Below, in pieces: positions 1,830 through 32,868 of a stretch of DNA of 64,000 bases. The notes beneath the pieces were generated by a model. It had not been told where the DNA came from and ran no database searches. It was given only the letters and a program-made list of their open reading frames with translations. Position numbers and translations under genes: made by a program. Numbering within the stretch: position 1 is the first letter of the stretch; each line of letters begins with the position of its first letter. This DNA is from Candidatus Binatia bacterium (GTDB lineage: Bacteria > Desulfobacterota > Binatia > UBA9968 > JAJDTQ01): positions 2,336,001 to 2,400,000 of the forward strand of contig OY762897.2 in assembly GCA_963666515.2 (NCBI GenBank), written 5' to 3'.

Positions 1830-2903
1830 ATGATCAGCATTCGCAAACTGGAGAAGATCTTCGACTCGGCCCGGGGGCCGGTGCGCGCCGTCGGCGGCAT
1901 CGACCTGGAAGTGGCCCAAGGCGAGTTCATGGTGCTGCTGGGGCCCAGCGGCTGCGGCAAGACCACCACCCTGCGCTGCGTGGCCGGGCTGGAGCGGCCG
2001 GACGGCGGCTCCATCGAGATCGACGGCGAGCTGGTGGACAGCGCCGGGGGCGGGGCCTACGTGCCGCCGGAACGACGCGACATCGGCATGGTGTTCCAGA
2101 GCTACGCCGTGTGGCCGCACCTGAACGTGTTCCAGAACGTGGTGTTGCCGCTCACCGAGGGACAGCGGCGCATACCGCGCTCGGAGGTGCGGGACCGCGC
2201 ACTGGAGGCGCTCCGGCTGGTGCGGCTGGACGGTCTGGAGGAGCGCCCGGTCACGGACCTGAGCGGCGGGCAGCAGCAGCGCGTGGCGCTGGCCCGGGCG
2301 GTGGTGACCCGGCCCAAGGTGCTGCTCATGGACGAGCCCCTGAGCAACCTCGACGCGCGCCTGCGCGACCAGATGCGCGACGAGCTGCGGCGCATCGCCG
2401 AGTCGGTCAACGTCACCTCCCTCTACGTCACCCACGACCAGGCCGAGGCCCTGAGCCTGGGCGACCGGGTGTGCGTCATGAACGAGGGCGAGATACTTCA
2501 GTTGGACACACCCAAGCAGGTCTACGCCGAGCCCCCCAACCTCTTCGTCGCCCGCTTCGTGGGCGAGATGAACTTCCTCCCCGGCAAGGTGGTGGACGCC
2601 GGCCGCGTGGAGTCCGGCTTGGGCGCCATCGAGTGCGCCGTGCCGCCAGCGTGCGCGCCGGGTACGGCGGTCACCCTGGGCATCCGTCCCGAGCACATCG
2701 GCATCGCCGCGGGCGAGCCGGCAGGCTCGGTCCGCGGACAGGTGTTGCGGCAAACCTACCTCGGCGACGCGCTCCACTGCCAGGTGCAGGTGGGCGAGGT
2801 GGAGCTGACGGTCAAGGCGGTGGGCGACGCCGAGTACGCCCGCGGCGACACCGTCGCGGTCTCGCTGCCCGCCAAGGGCTGGCACGTATTCCCGGAAACG
2901 TAG
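1830..2903 (+). CDS. ABC transporter ATP-binding protein (PotA/FbpC-like, C-terminal TOBE)
   Basis: Walker A GPSGCGKT, signature LSGGQQQR, Walker B LLMDEP, H-loop VTHD. Confidence 0.95.
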   Translation: MISIRKLEKIFDSARGPVRAVGGIDLEVAQGEFMVLLGPSGCGKTTTLRCVAGLERPDGGSIEIDGELVDSAGGGAYVPPERRDIGMVFQSYAVWPHLNVFQNVVLPLTEGQRRIPRSEVRDRALEALRLVRLDGLEERPVTDLSGGQQQRVALARAVVTRPKVLLMDEPLSNLDARLRDQMRDELRRIAESVNVTSLYVTHDQAEALSLGDRVCVMNEGEILQLDTPKQVYAEPPNLFVARFVGEMNFLPGKVVDAGRVESGLGAIECAVPPACAPGTAVTLGIRPEHIGIAAGEPAGSVRGQVLRQTYLGDALHCQVQVGEVELTVKAVGDAEYARGDTVAVSLPAKGWHVFPET

Positions 2904-2938
2904 GAAGACTCTGGTCTATTTCCGCAAGCAAGATGGCT

Positions 2939-2977
2939 CCGTTCGCCCTGAGCGTAGCGAAGCGAAGTCGAAGGGCG
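2939..2977 (+). repeat. REP-like palindromic element, single copy (CCGTTCG.CCTGAGCGTAGC...GAAGTCGAAGG family)
   Basis: Same motif as 9839-9952, 15040-15146 and 30878-30947. Confidence 0.8.
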
Positions 2978-2993
2978 CAAGAAAGGAAACCAC

Positions 2994-3932
2994 ATGGCCC
3001 TGATCATCAGCGCGAAGCAGACCCGCGAACTCATCGACATGGCGACCTGCATCCGTCTCCTCGACCGGATGTTCCGGGACCGGGCCGCGGGCAAGGTGCG
3101 GGCCGTCCCGCGCCGGAGGCTCAAGGGAAGCAGCAAGCAGCTCAACGTGATGGCCGCGTGGCACCAGACCTCGGACCTCATCGCGCTGCGAAGCTACGTC
3201 GGCAAGGCCAATACCATCAGCCTGTACGACGGCGGCGCCGGGGGCCTCAAGACCGTCATGAGCGCCGCGTATCTCAGCAGCCTGCGCACCGGCGCGGCCA
3301 CCGGGGTGGCGGCGAAGTATCTCGCACCGGCGAAACCGTCGGTGCTGGGGCTGATCGGTCCCGGCTGGCAGGGCACGTTTCAGGTGGAAGCCGTGGTCAA
3401 GGCCTGCCAGCCGAAGGAGGTGCTGGTATTCGGCCGCAACGCTGCGCGGCGCGACGGCTTCATCGAGGCAATGAGCAAGGTGGTGCGCACACCCTTCCGT
3501 GTGGCGAGCTCGGTAGACGAGGTCGAGAGCGAGTCCGACATCCTGGTGATCTCCACCGACTCCACGACCCCCATCGTCGAAGGCCGGCGGCTCAAGGACG
3601 ACGTTCTGGTGGCCACCATCGGCGCCAATCAGCCGGTGAAGCACGAAGTGTCCGGAAGGCTCATCCGGTCCATGGACCTGGTGGTCACCGACGACCTCGC
3701 CACCGCGCAGAACGACAGCGGCGACCTCATCGACGCCTGCGCCAAGAGGCAACTGCGCTGGCGCGACGTTGTGCCGCTGGAATCCATCGTGGCCGACGGC
3801 CCGCAAGGCAGGCCCCGCAAGGTCCTGTTCCAGTCCAACGGGATCCCGGACGAGGACCTTGCGGTGGGGACGTACGTGCTGCGGCAGGCGCTGAAGAAGG
3901 GAATGCGGCTGCGGGAGATCAGGGAATTCTGA
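2994..3932 (+). CDS. Ornithine cyclodeaminase/mu-crystallin family protein
   Basis: LRTGAATGVAAKYLA, GLIGPGWQG Rossmann, F.SNG..EDLA C-terminal motif; RBS AAGGAA. Confidence 0.88.
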   Translation: MALIISAKQTRELIDMATCIRLLDRMFRDRAAGKVRAVPRRRLKGSSKQLNVMAAWHQTSDLIALRSYVGKANTISLYDGGAGGLKTVMSAAYLSSLRTGAATGVAAKYLAPAKPSVLGLIGPGWQGTFQVEAVVKACQPKEVLVFGRNAARRDGFIEAMSKVVRTPFRVASSVDEVESESDILVISTDSTTPIVEGRRLKDDVLVATIGANQPVKHEVSGRLIRSMDLVVTDDLATAQNDSGDLIDACAKRQLRWRDVVPLESIVADGPQGRPRKVLFQSNGIPDEDLAVGTYVLRQALKKGMRLREIREF

Positions 3933-3996: not shown

Positions 3997-5021
3997 TAGC
4001 CGGTCACCCCGTACAGCCGCTTGGCCGAATCGGCCAGCAGCCATTTCTTGTCCTCGGGGGACAGGTCCTCCCTGCGGCCGAGGTGGTCGATGTTCTCCGG
4101 GAACTCCATGTCCCAGTGGGGGTAGTCGGACGCGTAGTAGAGCACGTCGGGACTCAGCCACTTGCCGGTCTCGCCGATGAACGGCTCGTAGTCCTCGGCG
4201 TGGAAGTAGATGTTGCCGCCGCGCACGTACTCGCTGGGCTTCTTCTTGCAGAGCGGCGCCTCCGCGGCGCCGCGCTTCTCCCATTCCTCGTCCATGCGTC
4301 CGGCCCAGTAGGGCGCCCACGAGCAGCCCGCCTCCATGAACGCCACCCGGAGGTTGGGGAACCGCTCCATCACGCCCTGGAAGATCATGCTGGTCATCTG
4401 CATCATCTGGGCGAAGGCGTGGGACAGGGTGTGGACCTCGATGAACTGGTCGAAACCGTCGGCGCCGAAAGCCTGGGGCCCGCGGACCGTGGCGTGCACG
4501 CCCACCATGCAGTTGAGCTTCTCCGCCTCCTCGTAGATGGGCCAGTAGTCCTTGTGTCCCAGCGGCAGGCGCAGCCCGATGGCCGGCAGCATCAACCCGG
4601 TGAGATTGAGCTCCGTGACCGCCCGGCGCAGTTCCTTGACCGCCTCGGGCACGTCCTGAAAGGACACCAGCGCCACCCCCTTGAGCCGGGGGCTGACCTT
4701 CTGGAACTCCTCCGAGACGAAGTCGTTCCAGGCCTTGCAAAGGGCCACCGCCAGGTCCGGCTCGCGGATCCAGCCGATGCCCAAGCCGCCCGTCGGATAG
4801 AGGTACGCGGTGGTGAGCCCGCCCTCGTCCATGGCGTTCAGCCACGTCCTGGCGTCACACGCCGTCGTCCCCAGGGTCCCGCCGATGGAACGGTCCCAGT
4901 TGTCGATCGGGTAGAGGGTCGCGGTCCGGTCCACCCACGGTGCTTCCATGTACTTCTTGAGCTGCTCGTCGGTCTCGGTGATGTGCCCGTCCGCATCGAT
5001 GACTTCGATGTCTCTGGCCAT
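3996..5021 (-). CDS. Amidohydrolase_2 family metal-dependent hydrolase/decarboxylase
   Basis: IDADGH metal motif, VGVH, FMEAGCSW, YASDYPHWD; start MARDIEV with GAGGAGG RBS. Confidence 0.9.
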   Translation of the reverse strand: MARDIEVIDADGHITETDEQLKKYMEAPWVDRTATLYPIDNWDRSIGGTLGTTACDARTWLNAMDEGGLTTAYLYPTGGLGIGWIREPDLAVALCKAWNDFVSEEFQKVSPRLKGVALVSFQDVPEAVKELRRAVTELNLTGLMLPAIGLRLPLGHKDYWPIYEEAEKLNCMVGVHATVRGPQAFGADGFDQFIEVHTLSHAFAQMMQMTSMIFQGVMERFPNLRVAFMEAGCSWAPYWAGRMDEEWEKRGAAEAPLCKKKPSEYVRGGNIYFHAEDYEPFIGETGKWLSPDVLYYASDYPHWDMEFPENIDHLGRREDLSPEDKKWLLADSAKRLYGVTG

Positions 5022-5118
5022 GGTTTCCTCCTCGATTGGATTGGTCGTTGAAACGCACATACCCGTGTCGTTACCGGCCACGCATGACGGCGTATCCGTT
5101 CGGTAGGCACGCTAGGCG

Positions 5119-5207
5119 ACTCTACGGCGAGGCGCGCTCCATTGTCAACACCACCGCCAAACGCAGCCACATCAAGCTTGACATGCGCCCCCTGCCTGAA
5201 TAAACAT
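5119..5207. promoter_or_regulatory. Divergent sigma70-like promoters
   Basis: + strand TTGACA 5178-5183 then TAAACA at 5201 (17-nt spacer); - strand TTGACA 5148-5143 then TAGAGT (18-nt spacer). Confidence 0.5.
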
Positions 5208-5284
5208 GGCGGTTTTCAAACGGCGCGGGAATCGTTGTCCGCGCCGGCAAACCCGGCGGCTACCGCCTGTACGGAGGTATACCC

Positions 5285-6256
5285 ATGACTCGTATTCTTA
5301 GCGCCGTTGTCATTGGCTTCGCGGTACTGCTGCTGTTCGGCACCGCGGTCCAGGCGGAGTTCCCCAAGAAGAACATCAACAGCATCGTCACCTTCTCGCC
5401 GGGCGGGGGCTTCGACACCATTTCCCGGGCCATCTCCCGCTTCGGCGAGAAGTACCTGCCCAAGGGCGTCAAGATGATCGTCAAGAACGTCACCGGCGCC
5501 GGCGGCATCACCGGCACCGTCTATCTGTACCGCTCCAAGCCCGACGGCTACACCATCGGACAGCTCCACGGCGGCATGATGGCGGTGCCGTTCCTCAGGG
5601 GCGTCAAGAAGACGGGCTACGACTACGAGAAGTTCACCTGGGTGGCGCGGGTCGGAGGCGAGCCCTACGCCCTGCTCTTGCGCAAGGACTCCAAGTACAA
5701 GTCGCTGGAGGAGTTGCAGAAGTCCAAACGCGTGACCTGGGGTCTCGAAGCCATCGGCGTCGGACGCTGGGTGGACGCCTTCATTGCGGCCGGCGAATTG
5801 GGCATCGACTTCCAGGTCGTGTCCGGTTACCGCGGCACGGGCGAGAACCTGCCCGGCCTGTTGCGGGGGGACTACGACGTCTTCTTCCAGCCCATCGACC
5901 ATCCCTCCGTGGTGCCGTACCTCAAGACCGGCGAGATCCGGCCGGTCCTGACCATGGGGGCCAAGAGAGCCATCAACGCTCCCGATGTCCGCACCGCCAT
6001 CGAGGCGGGGTACAACGTCACGGTGTCTTCGGCCCGCCACATAGCGGCCCCGCCGGGAACTCCCGCCACGGTGGTGAAGGCCCTGGAGACGCTGCTGATG
6101 AAGGCCATGAACGACAAGGACTACGACGCGTTCATCAAGAAGTCGGGCCTGGTGCTGGATCCGGGCGGCACCAAGCGCGCCAACAAGGACATCGCGGATC
6201 TCGCGGCGCTCTACCGGAAGTACACGCCGGCGATGAAGAAGACGCTGAAGAAGTAG
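5285..6256 (+). CDS. Tripartite tricarboxylate transporter substrate-binding protein (TctC/Bug family)
   Basis: Signal peptide, SPGGGFDT, NVTGAGG, KPDGYTIG, GYRGTG, APPGTP. Confidence 0.9.
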   Translation: MTRILSAVVIGFAVLLLFGTAVQAEFPKKNINSIVTFSPGGGFDTISRAISRFGEKYLPKGVKMIVKNVTGAGGITGTVYLYRSKPDGYTIGQLHGGMMAVPFLRGVKKTGYDYEKFTWVARVGGEPYALLLRKDSKYKSLEELQKSKRVTWGLEAIGVGRWVDAFIAAGELGIDFQVVSGYRGTGENLPGLLRGDYDVFFQPIDHPSVVPYLKTGEIRPVLTMGAKRAINAPDVRTAIEAGYNVTVSSARHIAAPPGTPATVVKALETLLMKAMNDKDYDAFIKKSGLVLDPGGTKRANKDIADLAALYRKYTPAMKKTLKK

Positions 6257-6287
6257 TAGGGCGAAGGCGGTCCCAGACAATTGCAGA

Positions 6288-6316
6288 TTGACAAGGTGGC
6301 TACTGGTAGCTACTTT
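6288..6316 (+). promoter_or_regulatory. Promoter/operator of first TA operon (probably leaderless)
   Basis: TTGACA-17nt-TACTTT, imperfect palindrome GTGGCTAC-tg-GTAGCTAC in the spacer, ATG 7 nt after -10. Confidence 0.7.
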
Positions 6317-6323
6317 ATCAATC

Positions 6324-6617
6324 ATGCGATCGGTAGGAATCAAGGCTCTCAACAGCCGGCTGAGCGAATACATCCGGCTCGCTGCATCCGGCGAAACCGT
6401 CCTGGTCACGGACCGGGACCGCGTCGTGGCGGAGATCGGTCCTCCCAAGGAGACGAGGAGCCCGTTTCTCGCCGACGCCCTGCTGGCGGAAGCGGTACGT
6501 GCGGGTTTGTTGACGCCGCCCGCACTACCGGCCTCCGGTAAACCTCCTGCATCCCAACCCGTAGCACCGTTGAGCCACCTTCTGGCTGAGCTCAACGACG
6601 ATCGAACCGACCGGTGA
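6324..6617 (+). CDS. Phd/YefM family antitoxin
   Basis: MRSVGIKALNSRLSEYIRLAASGETVLVTDRDRVVAEI; 4-nt overlap with PIN gene. Confidence 0.85.
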   Translation: MRSVGIKALNSRLSEYIRLAASGETVLVTDRDRVVAEIGPPKETRSPFLADALLAEAVRAGLLTPPALPASGKPPASQPVAPLSHLLAELNDDRTDR

Positions 6618-7000
6618 TCTACGTCGATACTTCCGTCGCGCTCGCCCATCTCCTGGCCGAAGACCGCCGTCCACCTGCGTCGCTATGGAGCGAAACCCTG
6701 GTAGCCAGCCGGTTGTTGGAATACGAGGTCTGGACCCGGCTACACGCCCGCAAGCTTGCCCGCTCGCACGGCGATGCGGCCCGCGAACTTATCGGGCGAA
6801 TCGCCATGCTGGAGCTTTCACCCCAAGTGCTCACGCGCGCGCTGGAGGCGTTTCCCCTACCCGTGCGCACGCTGGATGCCCTGCACTTGGCGTCATGTGA
6901 GTACTTGCGCGAGCAAGGCCAAACGGTCGCGCTGGCCAGCTACGACCGTCGGATGACGGACGTCGCCCGCGCCATGGAAGTGCCCGTTCTTGAGTTGTAG
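6614..7000 (+). CDS. vapC: PIN domain VapC toxin
   Basis: YVDTS, E, RTLDALHLAS, SYDRR acidic PIN residues. Confidence 0.88.
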   Translation: MIYVDTSVALAHLLAEDRRPPASLWSETLVASRLLEYEVWTRLHARKLARSHGDAARELIGRIAMLELSPQVLTRALEAFPLPVRTLDALHLASCEYLREQGQTVALASYDRRMTDVARAMEVPVLEL

Positions 7001-7017
7001 CCGCTGCACAGGGACCG

Positions 7018-7406
7018 TCAAGTACCCTTGAAACTCGGCTTTCGCTTCTCGTGGAACGCTTCCACGCCTTCCCGGAAGTCGTCGGACTGGCGCAGGCGGG
7101 GGAGACCCGGCAGCCGGTCTGGCTCTCGAAACGGCCCGCCGTGTCCACGTCTATGGCCGCGGTGCGGTGGCGCAAGGCCAGTAGTGAACTCAGATCGAAA
7201 GGCTCGACATCATGCTGGGACAGCCGCGCCGGGATGACGGGGACCGTGGTCGCCACCGTGACGCTGGCCTTCTCCACCAGGGCACACGGGCGATAGTTGT
7301 CGGGAAAGGTGAAGGCGCACGGCGCGGTGCCGGACATGACCCAGGCCAAGACCCCGGCGGCGCCGGACATGGGCGCGAAGATGCCCACGTTGTCGACTTC
7401 GCCCAC
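7018..7406 (-). pseudogene. Fused relic: internal acyl-CoA synthetase fragment plus enoyl-CoA hydratase C-terminus
   Basis: about 7100-7406 reads VTVATTVP...FDLSSL...FESQTGCRV; 7018-7098 in another frame reads RLRQSDDFREGVEAFHEKRKPSFKGT*. Confidence 0.65.
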
Positions 7407-7448
7407 CGCCAGACGTTCGGCTATGCCCCGGCCGATACAGACCTGGGC

Positions 7449-7847
7449 CTATACCGCCCGCGCGCGAACGATGGCTACGTCGTACGATTCAAGCACCGCG
7501 TCGGCGGTGACGAGCGTCAGCCCTTCCACCTGGGCCTGGGCCACCAGGGCGCGGTCGAACGGGTCGCGATGGTGCGGCGGCAGCGCGGCGGCGGTCAAGG
7601 CATGGAGGTGGGATATCGGCAGCCCGACGGCGCCGCTCCGTCTCATGCTCTCCGCCACGTAGATCGCCGGCGGTTCGGGAAGCGAAAGCCGGCCGGCCTC
7701 GTACTTGATCGCAATCTCCCAAGCGCTGGCCGCCGAGAGGTATATCTCGGCCGATCCAACGGCCATCGTCTCCAACAGACTGGCGGAGATCCGTTCGGGC
7801 TCGGTCTGCAACCACAGCCAGCAGTGGGTATCCAGGAGATACCTCAT
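7449..7847 (-). CDS. vapC: PIN domain VapC toxin (Sll0205-like)
   Basis: LLDTH, SAASAWEIAIK, HRDPFDRALVAQA, VTAD. Confidence 0.92.
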   Translation of the reverse strand: MRYLLDTHCWLWLQTEPERISASLLETMAVGSAEIYLSAASAWEIAIKYEAGRLSLPEPPAIYVAESMRRSGAVGLPISHLHALTAAALPPHHRDPFDRALVAQAQVEGLTLVTADAVLESYDVAIVRARAV

Positions 7848-23039: not shown

Positions 23040-24434
23040 ATGACCGAACTGGACAGCGTTACGTCGTCGAGCGAGACCGAATACCTCGAGTGGCACCTGC
23101 GCAACTACGAGGACATGCCGCGCGAGGTGATCCTCAAGATGGACCTCCTGCGGGTGGGCCACTGGTTCACCGACGCCGCCCTGGAACTGGCCTCCGAGGC
23201 CCTGGTCAAGTCCTACCGGCTGTTCTCCTACGACCTGATGTCCATGAAGGACATGAAGCGGAAGGAGCACCGGCGGACGCCCGAGTGGTTCGCCATCCGC
23301 GGCGGCCACCTGGGCCTGCGCCCCGTCATCGTCCAGACGACGCTGAACGCCGATTCGCCTTACGTCATCGACGTGGTGGACGGGGAGGTCCGGCTCCTGC
23401 TGGACGGGCGCGAGCTGTGTGACGTGAGCTTCCCCAAGCCGCTCAAGTACTACACGCGCTCCTTCGAGGACGGCACCAAGTACCACGAGATCATCGCCTT
23501 CGGCTATTTCGCCACGGTGTTCCGCAACTGCCAGTACTGGGGGCCGGACGAGGAGTGCCGCTTCTGCGACATCAACGTCAACGTACGCCAGATGAAGGAG
23601 TCCCGGGACTTCACCTTCAACACGCCGGTGAAGCCGGTGTCCTACGTGGCCGAGGTGGCCCGCTCCATCGAGCAGGACGCCATCGACGATGTTGGCTACG
23701 CTCCGCCCATCGACTTCCTGATCTCCGGCGGCACCATCCTGAAGACCCTGCACCGCAAGTCGGAGGACGACTTCTACCTGGAGTACGCCTCGGCCCTCAA
23801 GTGGGGCGGCCACCGCCGCTACATCAACATCCAGACCAACGCCAAGGACAAGGAGACCATGAAGCGCTACCGCGCCGAGGGCGTGGACTGCCACCACGCC
23901 AACATGGAGGTCTGGGACAAGCGGCTGTTCGAGTGGATCAACCCGGGCAAGAACCGCCGCATCGGCTGGGACAACTGGGTCAAGTGGATGATCGAGTCGG
24001 TGGAGGTGCTGGGCGAGGGCAACGCCCGCCCCAACTTCGTCTGCGGCGTGGAGCTGGCCCGCCCCCACGGCTTCGACAACATCCCCGACGCGGTCAACTC
24101 CACCGGCGGCGGCATCGACTTCATGATGCGCCACGGCGTCTTCCCGCGCTTCAACCAGTGGCGCCGGGAGCCCGGCTCCGACCTCGTCTCGCAGCACAAG
24201 CAGCCCGCCATCCCCCTGGAGTTCTACATCCAGATCATGCGCCGCTACTACGAGAGTTGGAAGAAGTACCGCCTCCCCTTTCCCCACCACGACTCCGTGC
24301 ACCCCGAGCGCCGCTGGGGCTCCGGCCACGCCACCTACGACGACATGCTCTTCCTGAACGACTGGCCCCACTACGAGGAGGAATGGGACCGAGGCTCGCG
24401 GGAGGGGCTGAAGGCCTGCGTCGTCAGCGAGTAG
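23040..24434 (+). CDS. Radical SAM protein with atypical CX8CX2C motif
   Basis: CQYWGPDEECRFC, ISGG, NMEVWD...PGK. Confidence 0.8.
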   Translation: MTELDSVTSSSETEYLEWHLRNYEDMPREVILKMDLLRVGHWFTDAALELASEALVKSYRLFSYDLMSMKDMKRKEHRRTPEWFAIRGGHLGLRPVIVQTTLNADSPYVIDVVDGEVRLLLDGRELCDVSFPKPLKYYTRSFEDGTKYHEIIAFGYFATVFRNCQYWGPDEECRFCDINVNVRQMKESRDFTFNTPVKPVSYVAEVARSIEQDAIDDVGYAPPIDFLISGGTILKTLHRKSEDDFYLEYASALKWGGHRRYINIQTNAKDKETMKRYRAEGVDCHHANMEVWDKRLFEWINPGKNRRIGWDNWVKWMIESVEVLGEGNARPNFVCGVELARPHGFDNIPDAVNSTGGGIDFMMRHGVFPRFNQWRREPGSDLVSQHKQPAIPLEFYIQIMRRYYESWKKYRLPFPHHDSVHPERRWGSGHATYDDMLFLNDWPHYEEEWDRGSREGLKACVVSE

Positions 24435-24461
24435 GCCGGGGTCCGAACTCGATCCTTCTCG

Positions 24462-24591
24462 AACCTTCAATCAGTCGGGTATCAATCTTAAATTGGTCAG
24501 CCTCAAATCTTCAGTCGGTCGGTTGTTGACTTTCAATTGGTCGGCCGCTAACCTTCAATCAGTCGAATTCATTGTTCAAATGGTTGGAGGG
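24462..24591 (+). repeat. Tandem array of about six 22-bp imperfect direct repeats, consensus AAYCTTCAATYRGTCGG plus 5 variable nt
   Basis: Units start at 24462, 24484, 24506, 24528, 24550 and 24571; overlaps a TTGACT-17-TAACCT promoter candidate and the RBS. Confidence 0.85.
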
Positions 24592-24599
24592 ATGCGGAC

Positions 24600-25820
24600 G
24601 TGTATCCTCGTTTTATCGAAAGCCGCGTCAACGAGGCGTTGACTTACACACGGGTCGTGCTCATATCCGGCCCTCGACAGTCCGGCAAGACGACATTGGC
24701 CAGACATATCGCAGCCGGCAAAATCCCGTTCCTGGACCTCGATGACAGGCCCACCCTGGAGACGGCCCTAGCCGATCCGGTGGGATTCATACGCGGCCTC
24801 GACCGGGCTGTGATCGACGAGGTTCAGCGCGCGCCCGACCTCCTCCTGGCCATCAAGTCGACTGTCGATGCCGACCCGAGTCCCGGCCGCTTCTTGCTCA
24901 CCGGGTCCGCGAATCTCATGACCGTGCCCCGGGTGGCCGATTCGCTTGCCGGCCGAATGAAGGTCGTGCGCCTCTTGCCCTTGGCACAGGCGGAGTTGAA
25001 AGGGAACCCCTCCGCCTTCCTTGATATGGCCTTCAAAGGCCAAGTGCCCAAGACCGGCGACGTCGTGGTCGGAGCCGACTTGATCGAAGAGGTTCTGGCT
25101 GGCGGATATCCGGAAGCTCTCACCCACTCCCGTTGGAACACCCGGCGCGACTGGTATCTCGACTACATCGAGGCCATCGTTCAACGAGATGTCCGCGACA
25201 TCGCCCAATTCGAGAAAGTTCCATTGATGCCGAGGCTCTTGCGCGTTCTCGCGGAGCACTCCGGACAACTCGTCAACTATTCCGGCTTCGGTGCACCGTT
25301 GGGGATGAACCATTTCACCACCCGAAGATACACTGGGCTATTCGAGAGTCTGTATCTCCTGTACAACCTGCAACCCTGGTTCACCAATACGCTAAAGCGG
25401 CTCACCAAGACACCGAAGCTGCACTTCCTCGATGCAGGACTGCTTGCGGCCTTAAGGGACATCACATCCGACCGTGTGGAGAAAGACAGGGCGCTTTTCG
25501 GACCGGTCCTGGAGACTTTTGTTCTTGCCGAGTTACTGAAACTGGCCAGTTGGTCAGACGACCGGTACGACTTCTCGCATTTCCGGGACAAGGAGCGGAA
25601 AGAGGTGGACATCGTCATGGAGGACCGTCGCGGCCATGTCGTCGGAATCGAGGTCAAGGCATCCGCCACCGTGACTGCCCGGGACTTCGCCGGCCTCCGC
25701 CGCCTGTCGGAAGCCTGTGGCGACCGGTTCGTTCTGGGACTGGTCCTCCATGACCACGAGCGCGTTGTGCCATTCGGTGAGCGCCTGTTCGCGGCTCCGG
25801 TCTCGGCGCTGTGGTCGTGA
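24600..25820 (+). CDS. AAA_14 ATPase with DUF4143 (wHTH and PD-(D/E)XK-like C-terminus)
   Basis: GPRQSGKTT, IDEVQR, LTGSA, GGYP, KTPKLHFLDAGL, EVDIV...IEVK. Confidence 0.9.
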   Translation: MYPRFIESRVNEALTYTRVVLISGPRQSGKTTLARHIAAGKIPFLDLDDRPTLETALADPVGFIRGLDRAVIDEVQRAPDLLLAIKSTVDADPSPGRFLLTGSANLMTVPRVADSLAGRMKVVRLLPLAQAELKGNPSAFLDMAFKGQVPKTGDVVVGADLIEEVLAGGYPEALTHSRWNTRRDWYLDYIEAIVQRDVRDIAQFEKVPLMPRLLRVLAEHSGQLVNYSGFGAPLGMNHFTTRRYTGLFESLYLLYNLQPWFTNTLKRLTKTPKLHFLDAGLLAALRDITSDRVEKDRALFGPVLETFVLAELLKLASWSDDRYDFSHFRDKERKEVDIVMEDRRGHVVGIEVKASATVTARDFAGLRRLSEACGDRFVLGLVLHDHERVVPFGERLFAAPVSALWS

Positions 25821-25927
25821 CGGAGCGCTGGGGAGGCGCTGATCTGGAGCGTGAATCACGCCTCCAAGTATTGCCTTCCGACCTGAGGCAGAATAATTTT
25901 TTGAGATATATACGGCGGGGGCAAACC

Positions 25928-26011
25928 ATGTTGATCAAAGTTCAGAAGTGGGGAAACAGCCAAGGTCTTCGACTCACGAAGGCGGACCCCTATGCGTCCC
26001 TCAGGGGTTAA
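25928..26011 (+). pseudogene. Truncated AbrB/MazE antitoxin 5' stub
   Basis: MLIKVQKWGNSQGLRLTKA then unrelated residues and stop; no toxin follows. Confidence 0.75.
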
Positions 26012-26039
26012 GTGATTGACCCAATCAACCGGCCCCGCC

Positions 26040-27587
26040 ATGACCAAGCTCAGACTGCCCATCGGCATTCAGACTTTCCGCAAGCTTCGGGAAGAAAACT
26101 GCTACTACGTCGACAAGACGCCGTGGATACGGGCGCTGCTGGACGAAGGCTCGCTTTTCTTTCTCTCCCGCCCCCGGCGCTTCGGCAAGAGCCTGTTCCT
26201 GGACACGCTGAAGGAACTCTTCGAGGGCACGGAGACGCTCTTTCGCGGGCTCTACATCCATGAAGGTTGGGACTGGTCCGTGCGCCATCCGGTGCTGCGA
26301 CTGAGCTTCGGAAGCGGCAATTTCAAGGACCCCGCCCAGGCGCATGCAAGCCTCATGGCGCAACTCGACGCCGTCGAGCGCCGGACAGGGACCGCGTCGC
26401 CCTACCCCACTTCGCCGGAGCGTTTCGGCCATCTGCTCGAACAGTTGCACCATCAGGCGGGGCGGCCGGTCGTGGTGCTGGTGGACGAATACGACAAACC
26501 GATCCTTGACGCGTTGGAAGCGCCGGAGATCGCCCGGTCGAACCGCGACTTCCTGCGCGGCGTCTATGGGGTCATCAAAGACTGCGACGCACACATCCGG
26601 TTCGCGTTCCTCACCGGCGTGAGCAAGTTCTCCAAGGTAAGCCTGTTCTCGGGTCTCAACAACCTCAAGGACCTGACCCTGGACCCGCGCTACTCCGCGG
26701 TCTGCGGTTACACCGATGCGGACCTGGACAGCGTGTTCGCCCCGGAACTGCCGGGGCTGGATCGGGACGAAATCCGTCGCTGGTACAACGGCTATGCATG
26801 GCTGGGTGACGAGAAAGTTTACAATCCTTTCGACATCCTGTTGTTGTTCGATCGGCGCAAGTTCGACGCCTACTGGTTCGAGACCGGCACGCCGTCGTTT
26901 CTGGTGGAGACCCTGTTCAAGCGGCGCGTGAGCACCCTGACCCTTGAGGACATGCTCGGCACCAACGACCTGCTGTCGAGATTCGATGTCGACGACATCG
27001 CCACCGAGGCGCTGCTGTTCCAGACAGGCTACCTCACCGTCACGGATGAGGAGGATTTGGGCGGCGAGCCGGTCTATCGACTCGCTTATCCCAACCGGGA
27101 AGTCCGCGAGAGCCTGAATCGGAGTCTCCTGCGTCACCTGGTGCAGGATTCGTCACGCCAGACGACAAACGGCGTCCGACTCTACCGCCTGCTGGAAGTC
27201 AACGACTTCGATGGTCTCAAGGCCCTGTTCCAGACCTTCTATAGCAGCATTCCCTATCAGTGGTACACGAACAACGACATCGCCGACTATGAAGGATTCT
27301 ACGCCAGCGTATTCTACTCCTACTTTGCTGCCCTCGGTCTCGACATCATGGTCGAGGACAGCAGCAGCCACGGGCGGCTCGACATGGCCGTACGCTTCAA
27401 CGGCAACGTCTACCTGTTCGAGTTCAAGGTAGTCGAGATGACCCAGCCCGGTGCGGCAATGGCCCAGTTGAAGGCCCGGCGTTACGCCGACAAGTACCGC
27501 AGCCTCGGCCAGCCCATCTGGCTCATCGGCGTGGAATTCAGCAAGGACACGCGCAACGTGGTCGCGTTCGAGGTCGAACGGGGGTGA
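26040..27587 (+). CDS. AAA-ATPase-like protein with C-terminal PD-(D/E)XK (PDDEXK_9) nuclease, copy 1
   Basis: LPIGIQTF, YYVDKT, RPRRFGKS, LVDEYDKP, GRLDM...FEFK. Confidence 0.92.
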   Translation: MTKLRLPIGIQTFRKLREENCYYVDKTPWIRALLDEGSLFFLSRPRRFGKSLFLDTLKELFEGTETLFRGLYIHEGWDWSVRHPVLRLSFGSGNFKDPAQAHASLMAQLDAVERRTGTASPYPTSPERFGHLLEQLHHQAGRPVVVLVDEYDKPILDALEAPEIARSNRDFLRGVYGVIKDCDAHIRFAFLTGVSKFSKVSLFSGLNNLKDLTLDPRYSAVCGYTDADLDSVFAPELPGLDRDEIRRWYNGYAWLGDEKVYNPFDILLLFDRRKFDAYWFETGTPSFLVETLFKRRVSTLTLEDMLGTNDLLSRFDVDDIATEALLFQTGYLTVTDEEDLGGEPVYRLAYPNREVRESLNRSLLRHLVQDSSRQTTNGVRLYRLLEVNDFDGLKALFQTFYSSIPYQWYTNNDIADYEGFYASVFYSYFAALGLDIMVEDSSSHGRLDMAVRFNGNVYLFEFKVVEMTQPGAAMAQLKARRYADKYRSLGQPIWLIGVEFSKDTRNVVAFEVERG

Positions 27588-28166
27588 GGGACAACCCCGC
27601 CACATGGAATGGCCCTTGAGCCGACGGCAGTGTCGGCGCGCGGGTCTACACAAGAAGAAAGACCTTTCACACGGCTCCCTTTATCATAGAGGATCATAGA
27701 GGATGATTTGATATCTTCTGATCAGCAGATGGCCGGCCAAGGCTGACCGGAAGGAGGTACAGATGCCGAACCTTCAAACAATAGCAGAGGCCACTATCGT
27801 CGATGTCCTGGGAAGCGACCCCGAACCGCTTCCGGAGTGGCTAGTAGCCCATGGCAACCCGCCACGGTTCAACCGCGAGAAGTTCTTCGATTCTCGGACT
27901 GTCTATTATCCGGGGTACGGAGACGATGGGCATCCCGTGGAACTCTTCAACCGCTCCCACGCCGCACACACGTTCATTTACGTCGACCATGGAGTCGGGC
28001 GGGACCCGCTCGCACAACGGCTTCGTGACCGGAAGCAGGGTTTTCTCGGATATGAGGTCGCCCATCAGCAGGAATTGTCGGAGGATACTTTGCGACCGGG
28101 CGGGTGGACGCAACACGTCACCGCTGACGAAGCCCGTGGGCTCATTACAGGCCGGGAAGGTTTAGC

Positions 28167-30139
28167 CTGAAGTTCTGGGGCCGGATTCCGGCCTGACAGC
28201 CTCTAACTCATTGTATTGGATAGACATTTGGAGATTCAAGGGCAGATTTCAGGCGTAACATGTAGTCACTAAATAGACTTGACTCATTCGGTGATTGTGC
28301 TACAATTCCATGTATGCCAAGACGCAAGGCCGCCGTACACGTCGTTACTACCACGCGTCGAGTCTACACCACCCACCTGCTCAGGCGCTCCTACCGCGAA
28401 AACGGCAAGGTCAAAAACGAAACCGTCGGCAACCTCTCCCACCTGCCCGATTCGGTGGTGGAACTGGTGCGCCTCGCACTCGGCGGCAAGACCCTGGTGC
28501 CGGCCGAGGAGGCATTGCAAGTGTTGCGCTCTCGTCCCCATGGACACGTGGCTGCGGTGCTGGGCACGGTCAAGACGCTGGGGCTGGAGCGGCTGCTGGA
28601 CTCTCGGCACAGCGTCCAACGCGACCGTAGTGTGGCCTTGATCGTGTCCCGGGTGCTGTGTCCGGACTCGAAGCTGGCCACGGCGCGGGCGTTGGATGCC
28701 GAGAGTGCGACGTCCACCCTGGGCGAGGAACTCGGCCTTGAGGCGGTGCAGGCCGAAGAGTTGTATGAGGCCATGGACTGGCTGGGGGAGCGTCAGGGGC
28801 GCATCGAACGCAGTCTGGCCAAGCGCCATCTCCACCACGGCACGCTGGTGCTCTACGACGTGACTTCGAGCTATCTCGAAGGGCGGCGCTGCCCGCTGGG
28901 GCGCATCGGCTACTCGCGGGACGGCAAGAAAGGCAAGCTGCAGATCGTCTACGGGTTACTGTGCAACGCCGACGGCTGTCCGGTGGCGGTGGAGGTCTAC
29001 GAGGGCAACACCGCTGACCCGAGCACTTTGGCGGACCAGATCCACAAGGTCCGCGAGCGCTTCGGGCTCGAACGTGTGGTGTTCGTCGGCGATCGGGGAA
29101 TGTTGACCAGTGCGCGCATCGACGAGGAACTGCGCCCGGTGGAGGGTCTGGACTGGATCAGTGCACTACGCAACGATGCCGTCGCCAAGCTCGCCCAAGA
29201 CCAAGGCCCCTTGCAGTCGTCCCTGTTCGACCACACCGACCTGGCTGAAATCGCTCATCCAGACTTCCCCGGCGAACGCCTCATCGCCTGCCTCAACCCC
29301 CTGCTGCGCCAGGAGCGTCGGCGCAAACGCCAAGCCCTGCTGGACGCCACCGAGCAGGAACTGGACAAGATCGTCCGGGCCACCCAACGCCCCAAACGAC
29401 CGCTTCGCGGTGAGAGCGCCATCGCACTGCGGGTGGGCCGGGTGTTGGGCCGCTTCAAGATGGCCAAGCACTTCGACATGACCGTCACCGAGTCCTCGTT
29501 CCGCTATCAGCGCAAATCCGACGCCATCGCTCAAGAGGCCCGCCTCGACGGCCTCTACGTCATCCGCACCTCCGTCCCTGAGCCCCTCCTCGATGCCACT
29601 TCCACCGTCAGCGCCTATAAACGCCTCGCCGCAGTCGAGCGCGCCTTCCGATGCCTCAAGACCGTGGACCTCCACGTGCGCCCGATCCACCACCGCCTGT
29701 CCCAGCGCGTGCGCGCCCACGTCTTCCTGTGCATGCTCGCCTACTACGTCGAGTGGCACATGCGCCGGGCCTGGGCTCCACTCTTGTTCGCCGAAGACGA
29801 CCCCCAGGACGCCGCTCGCCGCCGCCCCTCCCCCGTCAGCCCCAGCGTGCCCTCCCACAGCTCCGAGCGCAAAGCCGCCACCCGCCGAACCCCACAGGGG
29901 CAACCCGTGCACCACTTCCGCGGTCTGCTCCGCCACTTGGCCACCCTCACCCGCAATACCCTTCAACTCCAAGGCTCAAAGCTGACCTTCCAACAACTCA
30001 CCCTCCCCACCGACCTCCAACGCCTCGCCTTGGAACTCCTCCACCTCAAACTCCCCGTGTAGTCAGAACCCGTACTGCCGTCTCAATCCTATTCCCCCTA
30101 AATTCAACCACTTACGCTGTCTTGGCCTCAGAACTTCAG
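28167..30139 (+). mobile_element. IS1634 family insertion sequence
   Basis: Terminal IRs CTGAAGTTCTGGGGCC / GGCCTCAGAACTTCAG (15/16), 6-bp TSD TTTAGC at 28161-28166 and 30140-30145. Confidence 0.92.
28314..30062 (+). CDS. IS1634 family DDE transposase
   Basis: RRSYRENGKVK, YDVTSSYLEG, VGDRGM, YKRLAAVERAFRCLK, RVRAHVFLCMLAY. Confidence 0.93.
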   Translation: MPRRKAAVHVVTTTRRVYTTHLLRRSYRENGKVKNETVGNLSHLPDSVVELVRLALGGKTLVPAEEALQVLRSRPHGHVAAVLGTVKTLGLERLLDSRHSVQRDRSVALIVSRVLCPDSKLATARALDAESATSTLGEELGLEAVQAEELYEAMDWLGERQGRIERSLAKRHLHHGTLVLYDVTSSYLEGRRCPLGRIGYSRDGKKGKLQIVYGLLCNADGCPVAVEVYEGNTADPSTLADQIHKVRERFGLERVVFVGDRGMLTSARIDEELRPVEGLDWISALRNDAVAKLAQDQGPLQSSLFDHTDLAEIAHPDFPGERLIACLNPLLRQERRRKRQALLDATEQELDKIVRATQRPKRPLRGESAIALRVGRVLGRFKMAKHFDMTVTESSFRYQRKSDAIAQEARLDGLYVIRTSVPEPLLDATSTVSAYKRLAAVERAFRCLKTVDLHVRPIHHRLSQRVRAHVFLCMLAYYVEWHMRRAWAPLLFAEDDPQDAARRRPSPVSPSVPSHSSERKAATRRTPQGQPVHHFRGLLRHLATLTRNTLQLQGSKLTFQQLTLPTDLQRLALELLHLKLPV

Positions 30140-30766
30140 TTTAGCGAAGCCGTTCGGATGGTTTGTTGTACTGGATCGACAACAGGGCCGCGGGGATGAC
30201 CATGGGCCAAAACGTTTCGCAATCCTGTTCATCGGCGGTGATGGTTACGCCAGCTACGATGCACTGTATTGCCAAGGAGACGGGACTCCGCCACCATTTC
30301 TCGCGGTCATCCAGGACCACGGCGACAATCCCTTCGGACGCGACAGCCCTCTGGAGTATATCGCCCGGAGACAAGGCATCCTGCCAGAATATTTGTTGGT
30401 TGGAGAACCCTCCACAGAGTGGCTGGGATATGCAGACATCGGAGCCCTCCCCAAGCCGGGTGGCATGCATGCTACGGCAAGACGACTTTTTATGCGTATA
30501 GACGACAATCTCGAGAAAGTTGTCTCTGCCTTTCTGCACGACTCTCGCAACCTGCAAACACGAACAACTGAGGACCTGAACTTCATTGTGAACCAGGTCA
30601 ACAATTTACGCGCAGCCATCGTGGACATTATCAAACCGATGAAAGATCGGAACCTGAAACGGAATGCCGAGTCTCTCATTCGGAAACTAACCCATCGCCA
30701 AGCGAAAGTGAACAAAATCTTGCATGACTAAGGCCGAAACAATCCTCGGCGTCCACGTTGCCCCTC

Positions 30767-30846
30767 CACTTCATGCTGTCCCGGTCGGCGTGGTGGGACG
30801 ACCACTACGGGCCGCTCGAACGCGACATGACGGCGTTCCCAGCGCG
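30767..30846 (+). pseudogene. Fragment resembling the 3' part of the methyltransferase at 34718-34797
   Basis: HFMLSRSAWWDDHYGPLER vs HFMLPKSAWWDDYYGPLER. Confidence 0.8.
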
Positions 30847-30877
30847 CCCGGTGGCCTCAATAGGTCGTGAAGAAAGG

Positions 30878-30947
30878 GCTCAGACGAACGGCGATACAAT
30901 CCGTTCGTCTGAGCGTAGCGCCGCGTCAGCGGCGCGAAATCGAAGGG
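30878..30947. repeat. REP-like element, degenerate inverted pair
   Basis: GCTCAGACGAACGG / CCGTTCGTCTGAGCGTAGCG...TCGAAGGG. Confidence 0.75.
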
Positions 30948-30954
30948 CCTCGTC

Positions 30955-31582
30955 TTACCCTTCTGTCCATTCTGGGGTATCAAACACTGCGGAAACATCG
31001 GCCGTGAAACCTTCGAGCAGCGACGACGTGGCGACGGCTCCACGCCGAAACACGCCGTGCTCGACGTATGCGTCGCCCTTGAGAGTAAGGACGGTGATGG
31101 TGTCGTCTCGCGGATCCACGATCCAGTATTCGGGGATGCCACCCTCGGCGTAGTCGGCGCGCTTCTCCACCAGATCCCGTTCCGGGCCGTCCGGACTCAC
31201 GACTTCCGCCACCAAATCCGCCCCCAGCCAGTAACGATCCTGGTAGCGCGGATCCGACCGGCTGCGCAGGAGCAGGATGTCCGGTTCGCGGAACTTGCCT
31301 TCGCGGATGCGTATGCGTAGCGCCGAGACCATTGCGACGCCGCTGAGCGGGCTGAGGTAGTCGCGGAACAATTCGTAGAGGAAGGTGAAAATCGCTTGAT
31401 GCGTCGAGGTGGGTGCAGGCAGCCTCGATGTAGCCGTCGGTGAACTCGATGAGCCTGCGGCTGCGGTCAGTGAGCCACAGGTAGCCCGCGTCGCTCCAGG
31501 CGCCTTGGCGAGGCAGGGTCTCGCGCAACAGCGCATTCAGCGCTTCCTGCGAGGCGTTCGCGCGTCCTGTCATGCGGGTCAT
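30955..31582 (-). pseudogene. Uma2 family endonuclease, frameshifted copy
   Basis: Close paralogue of 39742-40359; GAG-GAA-CTG became GAG-G-CTG (2-nt loss) near 31423. Confidence 0.85.
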
Positions 31583-31676
31583 GCCCTCATCCCTTCGTAT
31601 CGCTGGGCTTTGCAAATCAATCCTACCCCACCCCCTTCATCCTTCCACCTCTTTGGACCGCCACACCGCTCCACCT

Positions 31677-31703
31677 CTGGATTCCGGCTTCCGCCGGAAT
31701 GAC
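31677..31703. repeat. Short palindromic REP-like element / possible terminator
   Basis: CTGG-ATTCCGGC-ttcc-GCCGGAAT-GAC. Confidence 0.6.
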
Positions 31704-31797
31704 AAATTCGGACATTCACGGGTTATTCCATGGCATAACGGGTTCGCGTATCCCGAACCCTGGTGCACCGAATGCGCGGCCAGACGATATACGGCTT

Positions 31798-32868
31798 CTA
31801 CGGGTGCACATCTTGCAGGAACAACTCGTCCGGGATCTCAAAGCCGATGCCCTGTTCACGGGCCCGCTGGTAGGCGATCCATGCGGGGATGTACTGGAGA
31901 CCGAGCCCGCTGGAGGGGCCGGTGCCGACACCGCCGAATAGGGTGATGTCGTCGTCGCTGGTGCGTCCCTGGTCGAGTCCTTCGACGATCTCGCCCAGGA
32001 ACTTGAGCTTGTGGTTCCAGTGGGGCTTCCAGCGCTCCATCCATAGCTGATCGGGCGGCACCTCGCCGGTCTTCATGTGCCAGATGGTGGCGGGTTCGCG
32101 GGCACGCGCGGTGATGGTGTCGGCGGTCTCGTGGGTGAGGTCGTCGAGTTCTCCGACCTGGAGAGAGCCGACGTAGTGGCCGGGCTTCAGGATGGCGCCG
32201 TCGAACACCGGCTCGTAGGAATTGGTCGCGCAGGCGATGATGTCGGCGCCTTTTACCGCCTCTTCGGTGCCGGACACGGGGATCAGCTTGGCGGGGACCC
32301 GCCCCTCCATGGCCCCGCAGAGCGCCAGCTTGTGTTCTTCGGTCGGGCAATAGACCCGAATCTCCCGGATCGGCCGCACCGCGCAATGGCCGATCACCTG
32401 GGTCGGGGCCAGCCATCCCGCGCCGAGGAGCGCCATCACTTCGCTGTCGGCCCGGCTCAGATGCCTGGCGGCGATGCCGCTGGTGGCGCCGATCATGGTG
32501 CGGTTGAGCACCGCGTCCTGAAACATCGCCAGCGGCGCGTGGTCTTCGATGCTGAACATGATGATCAGGCCGGAGAACTTGCCCACGGGATTGGGAATCT
32601 GGTAACGCCGGGGAAAACCCTTCACCACCTTGCGCGACAGATGTTCCGAGGTCATCCGTATCAGGTGCACGCCGTAGCGCGGCACCGAGGCGTCCATGCA
32701 GGAGTAGAGGTAGAACTCGCCGTCGCCGAGGCCGGTATAGTTGAGCGTGCGCGGACGGCTCGACAGCCGACCGGCACCAAGGTCGGCAAAGGTCGGCTCC
32801 AGCACCTTGATGGCATCCTCGACGGTAACGAGCCGCTCCACCTCCTCGTTGGTCAGGAACAGCGCCAT
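31798..32868 (-). CDS. Ornithine cyclodeaminase/mu-crystallin family protein
   Basis: MALFLTNEEV, GATSGIAARHL, LLGAGW, IACATN, GRTSDDDITLF. Confidence 0.85.
   Translation of the reverse strand: MALFLTNEEVERLVTVEDAIKVLEPTFADLGAGRLSSRPRTLNYTGLGDGEFYLYSCMDASVPRYGVHLIRMTSEHLSRKVVKGFPRRYQIPNPVGKFSGLIIMFSIEDHAPLAMFQDAVLNRTMIGATSGIAARHLSRADSEVMALLGAGWLAPTQVIGHCAVRPIREIRVYCPTEEHKLALCGAMEGRVPAKLIPVSGTEEAVKGADIIACATNSYEPVFDGAILKPGHYVGSLQVGELDDLTHETADTITARAREPATIWHMKTGEVPPDQLWMERWKPHWNHKLKFLGEIVEGLDQGRTSDDDITLFGGVGTGPSSGLGLQYIPAWIAYQRAREQGIGFEIPDELFLQDVHP

Follow-up and report, generated by a model that had tools for sequence, protein, structure and literature searches.

We describe here a phased array of direct repeats that lies directly in front of a gene for an ATPase-nuclease with AAA_14 and DUF4143 domains in a Candidatus Binatia bacterium. 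The stretch under study, in the following called the window, comprises 64,000 nucleotides of the GenBank assembly GCA_963666515.2 (contig OY762897.2, positions 2,336,001 to 2,400,000 of the forward strand); coordinates given without a locus number are those of the window. The array is real and is conserved together with the gene, its core is constrained, it moves with the gene only, and it appears to co-vary with the helix-turn-helix of the encoded protein. With a probability of about 0.6, we interpret the array from a comparison of many loci as an iteron-like self-operator: the encoded protein would bind to it cooperatively via its winged helix and would thereby regulate its own promoter, probably as a repressor.

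The repeat array of the window

The array consists of six direct units, which were read directly from the sequence at positions 24462-24483, 24484-24505, 24506-24527, 24528-24549, 24550-24570 and 24571-24591. An earlier note on this DNA had quoted six such units, and these were found letter for letter. The spacings between successive units are 22, 22, 22, 22 and 21; the spacer following each core has 9 nt, with the exception of core 5, where 8 nt give the 21-bp step. The elements of the array are as follows.

24462-24591, + strand: array of six direct units, 22-bp period with a last step of 21, each unit with a 13-nt core and a 9-nt variable spacer
24465-24477, + strand: core 1, CTTCAATCAGTCG, placed by a common-register position matrix
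24487-24499, + strand: core 2, CTTAAATTGGTCA, placed by the same matrix
24509-24521, + strand: core 3, CTTCAGTCGGTCG, placed by the same matrix
24531-24543, + strand: core 4, TTTCAATTGGTCG, its first base being the final base of the -35 hexamer
24553-24565, + strand: core 5, CTTCAATCAGTCG, its start overlapped by a -10-like hexamer just 5' of the core
24574-24586, + strand: core 6, GTTCAAATGGTTG, degenerate, adjoining the ribosome-binding site

Tandem Repeats Finder reported a period of 22 with 4.7 copies and a score of 61 for positions 24462-24565. A repeat search of the array region found a 16-nt repeat in four copies with spacings of 44, 22 and 22, and no inverted repeats. The self-match at lag 22 within the 200 nt preceding the gene amounts to 40/66 (z = 7.4), which was equalled by none of 200 mononucleotide shuffles. 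When the whole 64-kb window was searched for the core, four matches with 0-3 mismatches were obtained inside the array, and elsewhere the core motif was absent apart from scattered matches with 2-3 mismatches. The array occupies the gap between a radical S-adenosylmethionine (SAM) gene and the AAA_14-DUF4143 gene, and the GC content is lowest there (0.52 versus about 0.65 in the flanks). The degenerate sixth core GTTCAAATGGTTG is retained at the equivalent position in the closest relative, locus L001.

Conservation of the array upstream of homologous genes

Relatives of the protein number in the thousands, many of them with 70-91% identity. The comparison draws on a scan limited to one genome per species and uses the 80 best of its 522 confirmed loci (47-94% identity, numbered with the prefix L); about 11 of them are near-duplicates of the context of another locus. 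The hosts belong to Binatia, Opitutae, Alpha-, Beta- and Gammaproteobacteria, Acidobacteriota, Rhodothermales, Bradymonadia and Chloroflexota, together with one actinobacterium.

Lags of 8-40 were tested over the 200 nt upstream of each gene. With the window included, the best self-match lag was 22 in 65 of 78 regions and 23 in four, whereas, of 736 control windows taken from these loci, 14 had a best lag of 22. Phased units were called by a position matrix that was seeded with the six cores of the window and iterated, combined with a chaining rule of 21-23 nt. At least three phased units on the gene strand were present in 70/79 upstream regions at a mean score above 4 and in 73/79 at any score, versus 1/79 on the reverse complement and 0/1052 in control windows on both strands, a contrast that is somewhat flattered by the training of the matrix on the tested regions. 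The earlier note had suggested looking for a 21-23-bp periodicity upstream of homologues and had counted homologues without arrays as evidence against a gene-array system; the periodicity is there, with at least three phased units in the 70 regions mentioned.

The arrays have three units at 38 loci, four at 27, five at four, six at three and eight at one. The 195 spacings between units amount to 22 in 171 cases, 21 in nine and 23 in 15. The general core consensus is TTTCAATTGGACG, in which G10 is near-invariant and T1, C12 and A5 are strongly kept. Two arrays stand out by their appearance. In L075, from an Anaerolineae genome, eight or more units follow each other with a 23-bp period (4650-4970), and in L066 four units are identical over the full 22 bp, spacer included (4860-4950), which suggests a recent duplication of units.

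Constraint on the core and transfer together with the gene

Within single loci, agreement between units is 0.73-0.96 at core positions versus 0.55-0.67 in the spacer, a measure that is partly circular, since the cores were chosen by the same matrix. When related loci were compared in a common register, as 21 disjoint pairs, the identity of the cores is 0.87 and that of the spacers 0.65 (Wilcoxon p = 4e-5); for the window and L001 the values are 0.88 and 0.59, respectively.

Where related genomes differ in context, nucleotide identity ends at the edges of array and gene. Such blocks of identity were found for L034/L047 (4857-6239), L034/L041 (4886-6251), L051/L052 (4809-6226) and L078/L079 (716-2182), with gene positions given for these loci of 4974-6197, 4992-6227 and 795-2018. 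A Pfam scan of 101 flanking open reading frames (ORFs) of the loci yielded no conserved partner family. The neighbours are housekeeping genes mixed with Fic genes (5), AAA_14-DUF4143 paralogues (4) and integrases (2), and further include type I restriction R, EcoRII-C, TOTE primase, an SbcC-like gene, TraG, TrbI and RepC. With locus-specific matrices, 258 array units were recovered over 1.35 Mb versus 21 extra matches, most of them weak. Strong matches outside the arrays are confined to L062, which has a second array, and to L075, with a single extra unit farther upstream. Occurrence of the repeat elsewhere, unlinked to this family, had been named as a finding that would speak against a link between gene and array, and these counts show little of it. 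The idea of a unit made up of one gene and its own array is thus strongly supported by the comparison.

In the 100 nt after the stop codon, units occur at chance level on either strand (3/55 and 1/55 loci below 0.05). In L062 a second array of four TCCGGATTGGACG units with 22-bp spacing (2271-2350) begins 18 nt past the stop codon of the cassette and is followed by a few codons similar to those with which the gene begins, as in a truncated second copy, and then by unrelated DNA. This second array appears to be what is left of another cassette in tandem. Loci L034 and L036, both from the Rhizobium contig NZ_KI912101.1, are 100% identical over 11,194 bases; thus, a large segment of this contig, cassette included, is exactly duplicated.

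Suggested co-variation of the core with the winged helix

Different versions of the core are paired with different residues at positions 237-240 of the protein. The core TTTCAAT is found with N-H-(F/V/P)-T, T(C/T)CCAAT with (S/D)-H-K-T, TCCG(G/A)AT with D-D-K-T, and TT(A/T)A(A/G)AT with S-(G/S)-V-T or T-x-P-T. Among all pairs of a protein column and a core position, residue 238 and core position 4 have the highest normalised mutual information (0.87), closely followed by columns 239, 237, 227, 262, 233 and 229. After correction for entropy, residues 222-266, which account for 29 of the 226 variable columns, hold seven of the top 20 columns (hypergeometric p = 0.007). As a control that preserves relatedness, 117 variable protein columns outside the helix-turn-helix were treated as pseudo-traits. 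These place on average 3.7 of the top 20 columns in residues 222-266, and four of the 117 reach seven; the observed mean residual difference was reached by none of them. Furthermore, a C at the third core position is paired with Lys239 in 54 of 54 loci.

These data are suggestive of, but do not prove, a co-variation of motif and protein in which residues 237-239 would be the most tightly coupled. A co-variation of the repeat consensus with the winged helix-turn-helix, for which the earlier note had suggested a test, is supported in part: the motif tracks the protein lineage and the helix-turn-helix columns couple best, but the independent changes are too few for a proof.

Predicted promoter and ribosome-binding site

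24526-24554, + strand: putative sigma-70-type promoter TTGACT-17-TAACCT inside the array, weak and recognized by sequence only
24586-24591, + strand: Shine-Dalgarno-like GGAGGG, 8 nt 5' of the GTG start at 24600

The hexamers TTGACT (24526-24531) and TAACCT (24549-24554), with 17 nt between them, and the ribosome-binding site had been described in the earlier note as lying within the array, and the sequences are indeed present inside or against it. Among 62 non-duplicate loci, the best sigma-70-like pair in the 200 nt before the start begins between -8 and +13 from a core start in 50, and the exact register of the window (-5 from the core, TTGAC plus the first core base) is kept in 17. Good -10 boxes are found in L006 (TATACT), L025 and L028 (both GATAAT), L021, L026 and L066. 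The recurrence of an embedded promoter in register among several relatives would favour autoregulation. In L008, L009, L015, L029 and L062 the final array unit touches, ends on or contains the start codon. This hints at leaders that are very short or absent, or at an occlusion that would be translational as well as transcriptional.

The ATPase-nuclease

24600-25820, + strand: gene for a protein of 406 amino acids with AAA_14 ATPase, helical lid, winged helix and PD-(D/E)XK nuclease (DUF4143), from Pfam, PADLOC and an AlphaFold model
24669-24695, + strand: Walker A motif GPRQSGKTT, residues 24-32, from the alignment
25218-25427, + strand: predicted winged helix-turn-helix, residues 207-276, with recognition helix 238-250, from the AlphaFold model
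25557-25799, + strand: PD-(D/E)XK nuclease core, residues ~320-400, from alignment, model and fold matches

The assignment of the protein as an AAA_14-DUF4143 ATPase-nuclease, made in the earlier note without database searches, was confirmed by Pfam, where both domains score above their gathering scores (AAA_14, 84.1 bits versus 27; DUF4143, 151.3 bits versus 28.1); the other Pfam match, nSTAND3, is below threshold. In PADLOC, the candidate PDC-S01 (model PDLC04790) matches over the full length (residues 1-406, E = 1.3e-169), and an NCBIfam scan found no model matching the protein. In an alignment of 64 sequences, G24, G29, K30, T32, D73, E74 and D337 are invariant, and E351 and K353 are conserved in at least 90%. 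The Walker A, Walker B and PD-(D/E)XK D...ExK motifs are all intact.

A model calculated from this alignment with AlphaFold2 reached a mean predicted local distance difference test value (pLDDT) of 92.6 and a predicted template modelling score (pTM) of 0.92. It consists of an AAA+ core (residues 1 to ~135, with D73-E74 as Walker B), a helical lid (residues 140-201) and a winged helix-turn-helix made up of three helices (207-219, 227-234 and 238-250) and two wing strands (254-257 and 273-276), in addition to the nuclease domain. Foldseek searches of the PDB matched the archaeal AAA+ ATPases 2qen and 2fna with template modelling (TM) scores of about 0.43-0.50, and Orc1/Cdc6 proteins (2v1u, a DNA complex, 1w5s and 1w5t) with whole-chain TM scores of 0.23-0.30. 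Further matches were clamp loaders, the STAND proteins Apaf-1, plant nucleotide-binding leucine-rich repeat receptors (NLRs) and MalT (8bob, rank 35), and the Can2 nuclease. A sequence search of the PDB chains yielded P-loop-level matches only, to RecA and RuvB-like proteins; no relative by sequence has a solved structure.

Distant relatives and paralogues

By tblastn, the family was found on 418 plasmid records; of 50,697 phage records, only 8 carry it. Ten plasmid homologues with 27-45% identity (L081-L090) were analyzed as a distant set. A repeat search found 23-bp direct repeats upstream of four of the ten (L081, L082, L083 and L089), and lag analysis detected such repeats in L088, together with TTGACT-17-TATACT in register. 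In the remaining five (L084, L085, L086, L087 and L090) the repeats are inverted, with the arm nearest the gene adjoining or overlapping its start codon, and the half-site CCTTGCAAAT is common to L086 and L087 despite different hosts.

In L068, an AAA_14-DUF4143 paralogue at 6399-7583 has two palindromic sites of its own of the type TTACTCAAT-AATTGAGTAA (7584-7700, minus strand), which differ from the TCCCAATTAGCCG units of the adjoining cassette. It thus seems general in the family that the start of the gene bears a DNA element specific to that gene, and the 22-bp direct array is, as judged from these loci, a mark of the subfamily to which the window belongs. AAA_14-DUF4143 paralogues often adjoin cassettes, as in L029 with three copies within 4 kb (40-690, 2379-3554) and in L044 with two (2695-3867).

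Proposed mechanism and alternative explanations

Because the 13-nt core is asymmetric and constrained, because a single gene is transferred between phyla with it, and because core and helix-turn-helix change jointly, the simplest explanation is that the array is the binding site of the gene's own product. From the comparison we infer that the protein would bind physically, with one protomer per unit and with cooperativity, and that it would repress rather than activate. The winged helix-turn-helix of one protomer would read one 13-nt core. With cores in the same orientation and 22 bp apart, which is about two helical turns, the protomers would be placed head-to-tail on nearly one face of the DNA, and contacts between neighbouring AAA+ domains could make the binding cooperative. 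Units 4-6 contain or adjoin the -35 hexamer, the -10 hexamer and the ribosome-binding site, so that occupancy of the array would control transcription of the gene itself. Most likely this would be a negative feedback, by which a potentially self-damaging nuclease is held at a low and buffered level.

Several points weigh against a self-operator. The strict array call failed in nine of the 79 regions: L024 and L069 among them still show the lag-22 signal, L057, L073 and L076 have two units each, and L080 has no array and instead, as noticed by eye, a 6-1-6 palindrome before the start codon. Sites lying over the promoter of the binder's gene are expected for a self-operator, and this promoter is a predicted one, its register being kept in the 17 of 62 loci given above. 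In the window it is weak, and a consensus promoter scan of 24300-26100 called no promoter, because the -10 hexamer matches the consensus at only three of six positions. The recurrence of promoters among the loci is soft evidence, since AT-rich repeats can mimic the hexamers. The position of the last unit ranges between about -73 and about -12, where it overlaps the start codon, so that the geometry of the array relative to the promoter is not uniform. On a tree calculated without the helix-turn-helix columns, the link between Lys239 and C3 of the core comes down to two inferred changes with one or two independent pairs, and with so few pairs a sign test cannot reach significance. In nucleoside triphosphatases (NTPases) of the STAND type, the winged helix often serves intramolecular control and not DNA binding, and the fold search also matches this class. 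Finally, three to eight units exceed what simple autorepression needs.

This excess of units would be accounted for if the array were an assembly platform that keeps the ATPase-nuclease in an inactive nucleoprotein oligomer until a disturbance linked to infection derepresses the gene and releases the nuclease, or if the 13-nt motif were the target of the nuclease in foreign DNA. The intact catalytic residues of ATPase and nuclease, the status of the family as a PADLOC defence candidate and the Fic, restriction, TOTE and integrase genes among the neighbours are in line with this explanation, the main rival, which we regard as possible but rather doubtful. The diversification of the motif between lineages has also to be mentioned in its favour; however, it is also explained if paralogous cassettes within a locus have to avoid cross-talk with each other. 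A more elaborate and quite speculative version would have the array serve as scaffold for a silent head-to-tail complex of the ATPase-nuclease. Gene and array would then form a two-part sensor-effector, in which loss or remodelling of the complex upon infection or DNA damage would both derepress the gene and unleash the nuclease, and the motifs of the lineages would be orthogonal addresses for coexisting cassettes. It is unlikely that a factor other than the encoded protein, for example a host nucleoid protein or RNA polymerase, reads the repeats, or that they are nothing but structural promoter DNA. The array has a higher AT content than the flanks, and its units repeatedly contain promoter-like hexamers; but the cassette occurs in many phyla with the gene itself as the only common component, the core follows the protein lineage and not the host phylum alone, its coupling being strongest to the helix-turn-helix, and the constraint acts on an asymmetric core of 13 nt and not on AT content in general.

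The sharp boundaries of identity at array and gene, the tandem cassettes or remnants (the second array of L062, paralogues side by side) and the 418 plasmid records could also indicate that the array is a mobility site of a cassette of ~1.4 kb, either a recombination or homing site of the nuclease or a transposon-like end. We consider this improbable, as units beyond chance are absent in either orientation from the 100 nt past the stop codon, Pfam detects no transposase or recombinase in the cassette (a conserved target sequence was not searched for), and four Binatia genomes have the cassette at one conserved place. An iteron-type replication origin or a centromere-like partition site would fit the geometry, a core of 13-17 nt at 22-bp phasing being classic for iterons, and the layout of AAA+ domain and winged helix resembles that of Orc1/Cdc6. 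Nevertheless, such a function is very unlikely: the adjacent gene has no Rep family domain, no DnaA box lies within 800 nt of the array (none in 24300-24700, the nearest match being inside the gene at 25475), an AT-rich unwinding element is missing at a GC content of 0.52, all units have one orientation, and loci reside in contigs of up to 6.1 Mb (relatives 3.9-6.1 Mb) as well as on plasmids. Equally hard to maintain is a transcribed array whose repeat RNA would be bound or processed by the protein. Use of the predicted promoter would place units 5 and 6 in the 5' leader; however, with this promoter inside the array units 1-4 would be left untranscribed. An Rfam scan of the whole window gave no family match, the predicted fold of 24455-24605 is not persuasive (z = -2.07, with 7/200 shuffles as good), inverted repeats are lacking, and the winged helix of the protein is of the DNA type. 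Taken together, the earlier proposal of an ATPase-nuclease that reads its own array is supported in part, in the form of a probable autoregulatory site, which the lineage-matched motif, the coupling to the helix-turn-helix and the embedded promoter favour; its variants of an origin-like site and of a repeat RNA are not supported.

Genomic setting of the cassette

Upstream of the self-operator candidate lie the radical-SAM gene, of a variant type (23040-24434), an amidohydrolase gene and a gene for a ChsH2-like oligonucleotide/oligosaccharide-binding (OB) fold protein. Downstream, the start of a truncated AbrB/MazE-like gene is followed by a second ATPase-nuclease of other families (AAA-ATPase_like plus PDDEXK_9, 26016-27587), which shares 86% nucleotide identity with L001 9819-11218, and by an IS1634-family transposase (28314-30062), a separate element 2.5 kb from the cassette.

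The closest relatives of the cassette are found in L001-L003, all from Candidatus Binatia genomes, with 85-94% identity. L002 and L003 align with the window without a break up to the stop codon (25821-25823), and the alignment restarts at 31798; the cassette therefore forms the fixed left edge of a variable island, 25824-31797, that is missing from these syntenic loci. Within the island, a short ORF starting with MLIKVQKWGNSQGLRLTKA (25929-26012) stops after 27 codons and, as read from its sequence, looks like the N-terminus of an AbrB/MazE-type antitoxin. A longer version of it is present in L003, where 6282-6337 aligns with 25928-25983 of the window at 86%. A palindrome TGATTG-ACC-CAATCA (6-3-6, 26013-26027), found by eye and possibly due to chance, lies just 5' of the likely ATG (26040) of the AAA-ATPase_like/PDDEXK_9 gene. 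The top-scoring tandem repeat of the window, a 24-bp repeat of 2.5 copies at 55808-55867 (86% matches, score 85), is unrelated to the array.

Relation to known systems

According to PMC12988326, PDC-S01, a one-gene defence candidate, is without validation and is the fourth most common defence candidate across prokaryotes, with ~29,500 bacterial and ~10,000 archaeal matches. The protein of the window resembles PDC-S01 in its full-length model match and in both Pfam domains, and has the upstream array in addition. In the accessible parts of the literature searched, no cis-element or DNA-binding specificity is described for the PDC-S01 family, and those of the DUF4143 literature (an Aravind-lab preprint, PMC3424549 and PMC4406477) do not discuss regulation or repeats. 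An iteron-like or autorepression array together with an AAA+ nuclease in defence was likewise not found in the literature searched.

The array itself has well-known counterparts. On iteron plasmids, Rep initiators such as P1 RepA and RK2 TrfA bind phased iterons and repress their own synthesis. Common to both are direct repeats with a conserved core and a variable spacer, phased at about 22 bp, beside the gene of the presumed binder and overlapping its promoter, which is a predicted one here; in contrast, a Rep domain, a DnaA box and an AT-rich region are absent here, the location is chromosomal, and the protein is a fusion of AAA+ ATPase and nuclease. The archaeal Orc1/Cdc6 proteins have the same order of AAA+ domain, lid and winged helix, also with repeats upstream of the gene. 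Their origin boxes, however, flank an unwinding element in inverted orientation, whereas the units here all point one way, and Orc1 lacks the C-terminal PD-(D/E)XK domain. STAND factors of the MalT type oligomerise on arrays of asymmetric direct repeats. MalT likewise combines a P-loop NTPase with a DNA-binding domain, and its ATP-dependent oligomer reads several promoter sites of the same orientation; it differs in having a LuxR-type domain and a sensor and in activating other operons, whereas here the target would be the gene's own promoter and a nuclease is attached to the protein.

In ParR-parC of plasmid R1, tandem direct repeats surround the promoter of the binder's operon and mediate cooperative autorepression. 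The repeats here would similarly surround the predicted promoter of the presumed binder's gene, but ParR is small, belongs to the ribbon-helix-helix type and has a partner ATPase, and no partition partner is found among the neighbours here. The Avs and other STAND defence NTPases also join a core of NTPase, lid and winged helix to a PD-(D/E)XK nuclease. Here, in contrast, the nuclease is C-terminal, a repeat sensor domain is absent and a dedicated DNA array is present, and we know of no such array for Avs. Two further classes were considered and rejected. An end of a Tn7- or Mu-type transposon would have inverted sites at both ends and a transposase inside the element, and neither is found. 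An array of the type of clustered regularly interspaced short palindromic repeats (CRISPR), with repeats of 21-48 nt and unique spacers of similar length, would be transcribed as a whole, whereas here a 13-nt core alternates with a 9-nt spacer, the predicted promoter is inside and Rfam gives no match. Thus, in kind the array resembles known operator and iteron arrays, and what appears to be new is its presence on the very abundant and uncharacterised AAA_14-DUF4143 family.

Overall, our results suggest that one large branch of the AAA_14-DUF4143 family has a conserved, lineage-matched phased array on its own promoter, which would provide a first molecular handle on these proteins, namely a predicted sequence-specific DNA ligand and a predicted recognition helix with candidate specificity residues 237-239. 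Cloning of such genes without the upstream 150 bp, as defence screens may do, could strip off the control element. If the array should turn out to do more than autoregulate, it would represent a new way of wiring a nuclease to DNA.

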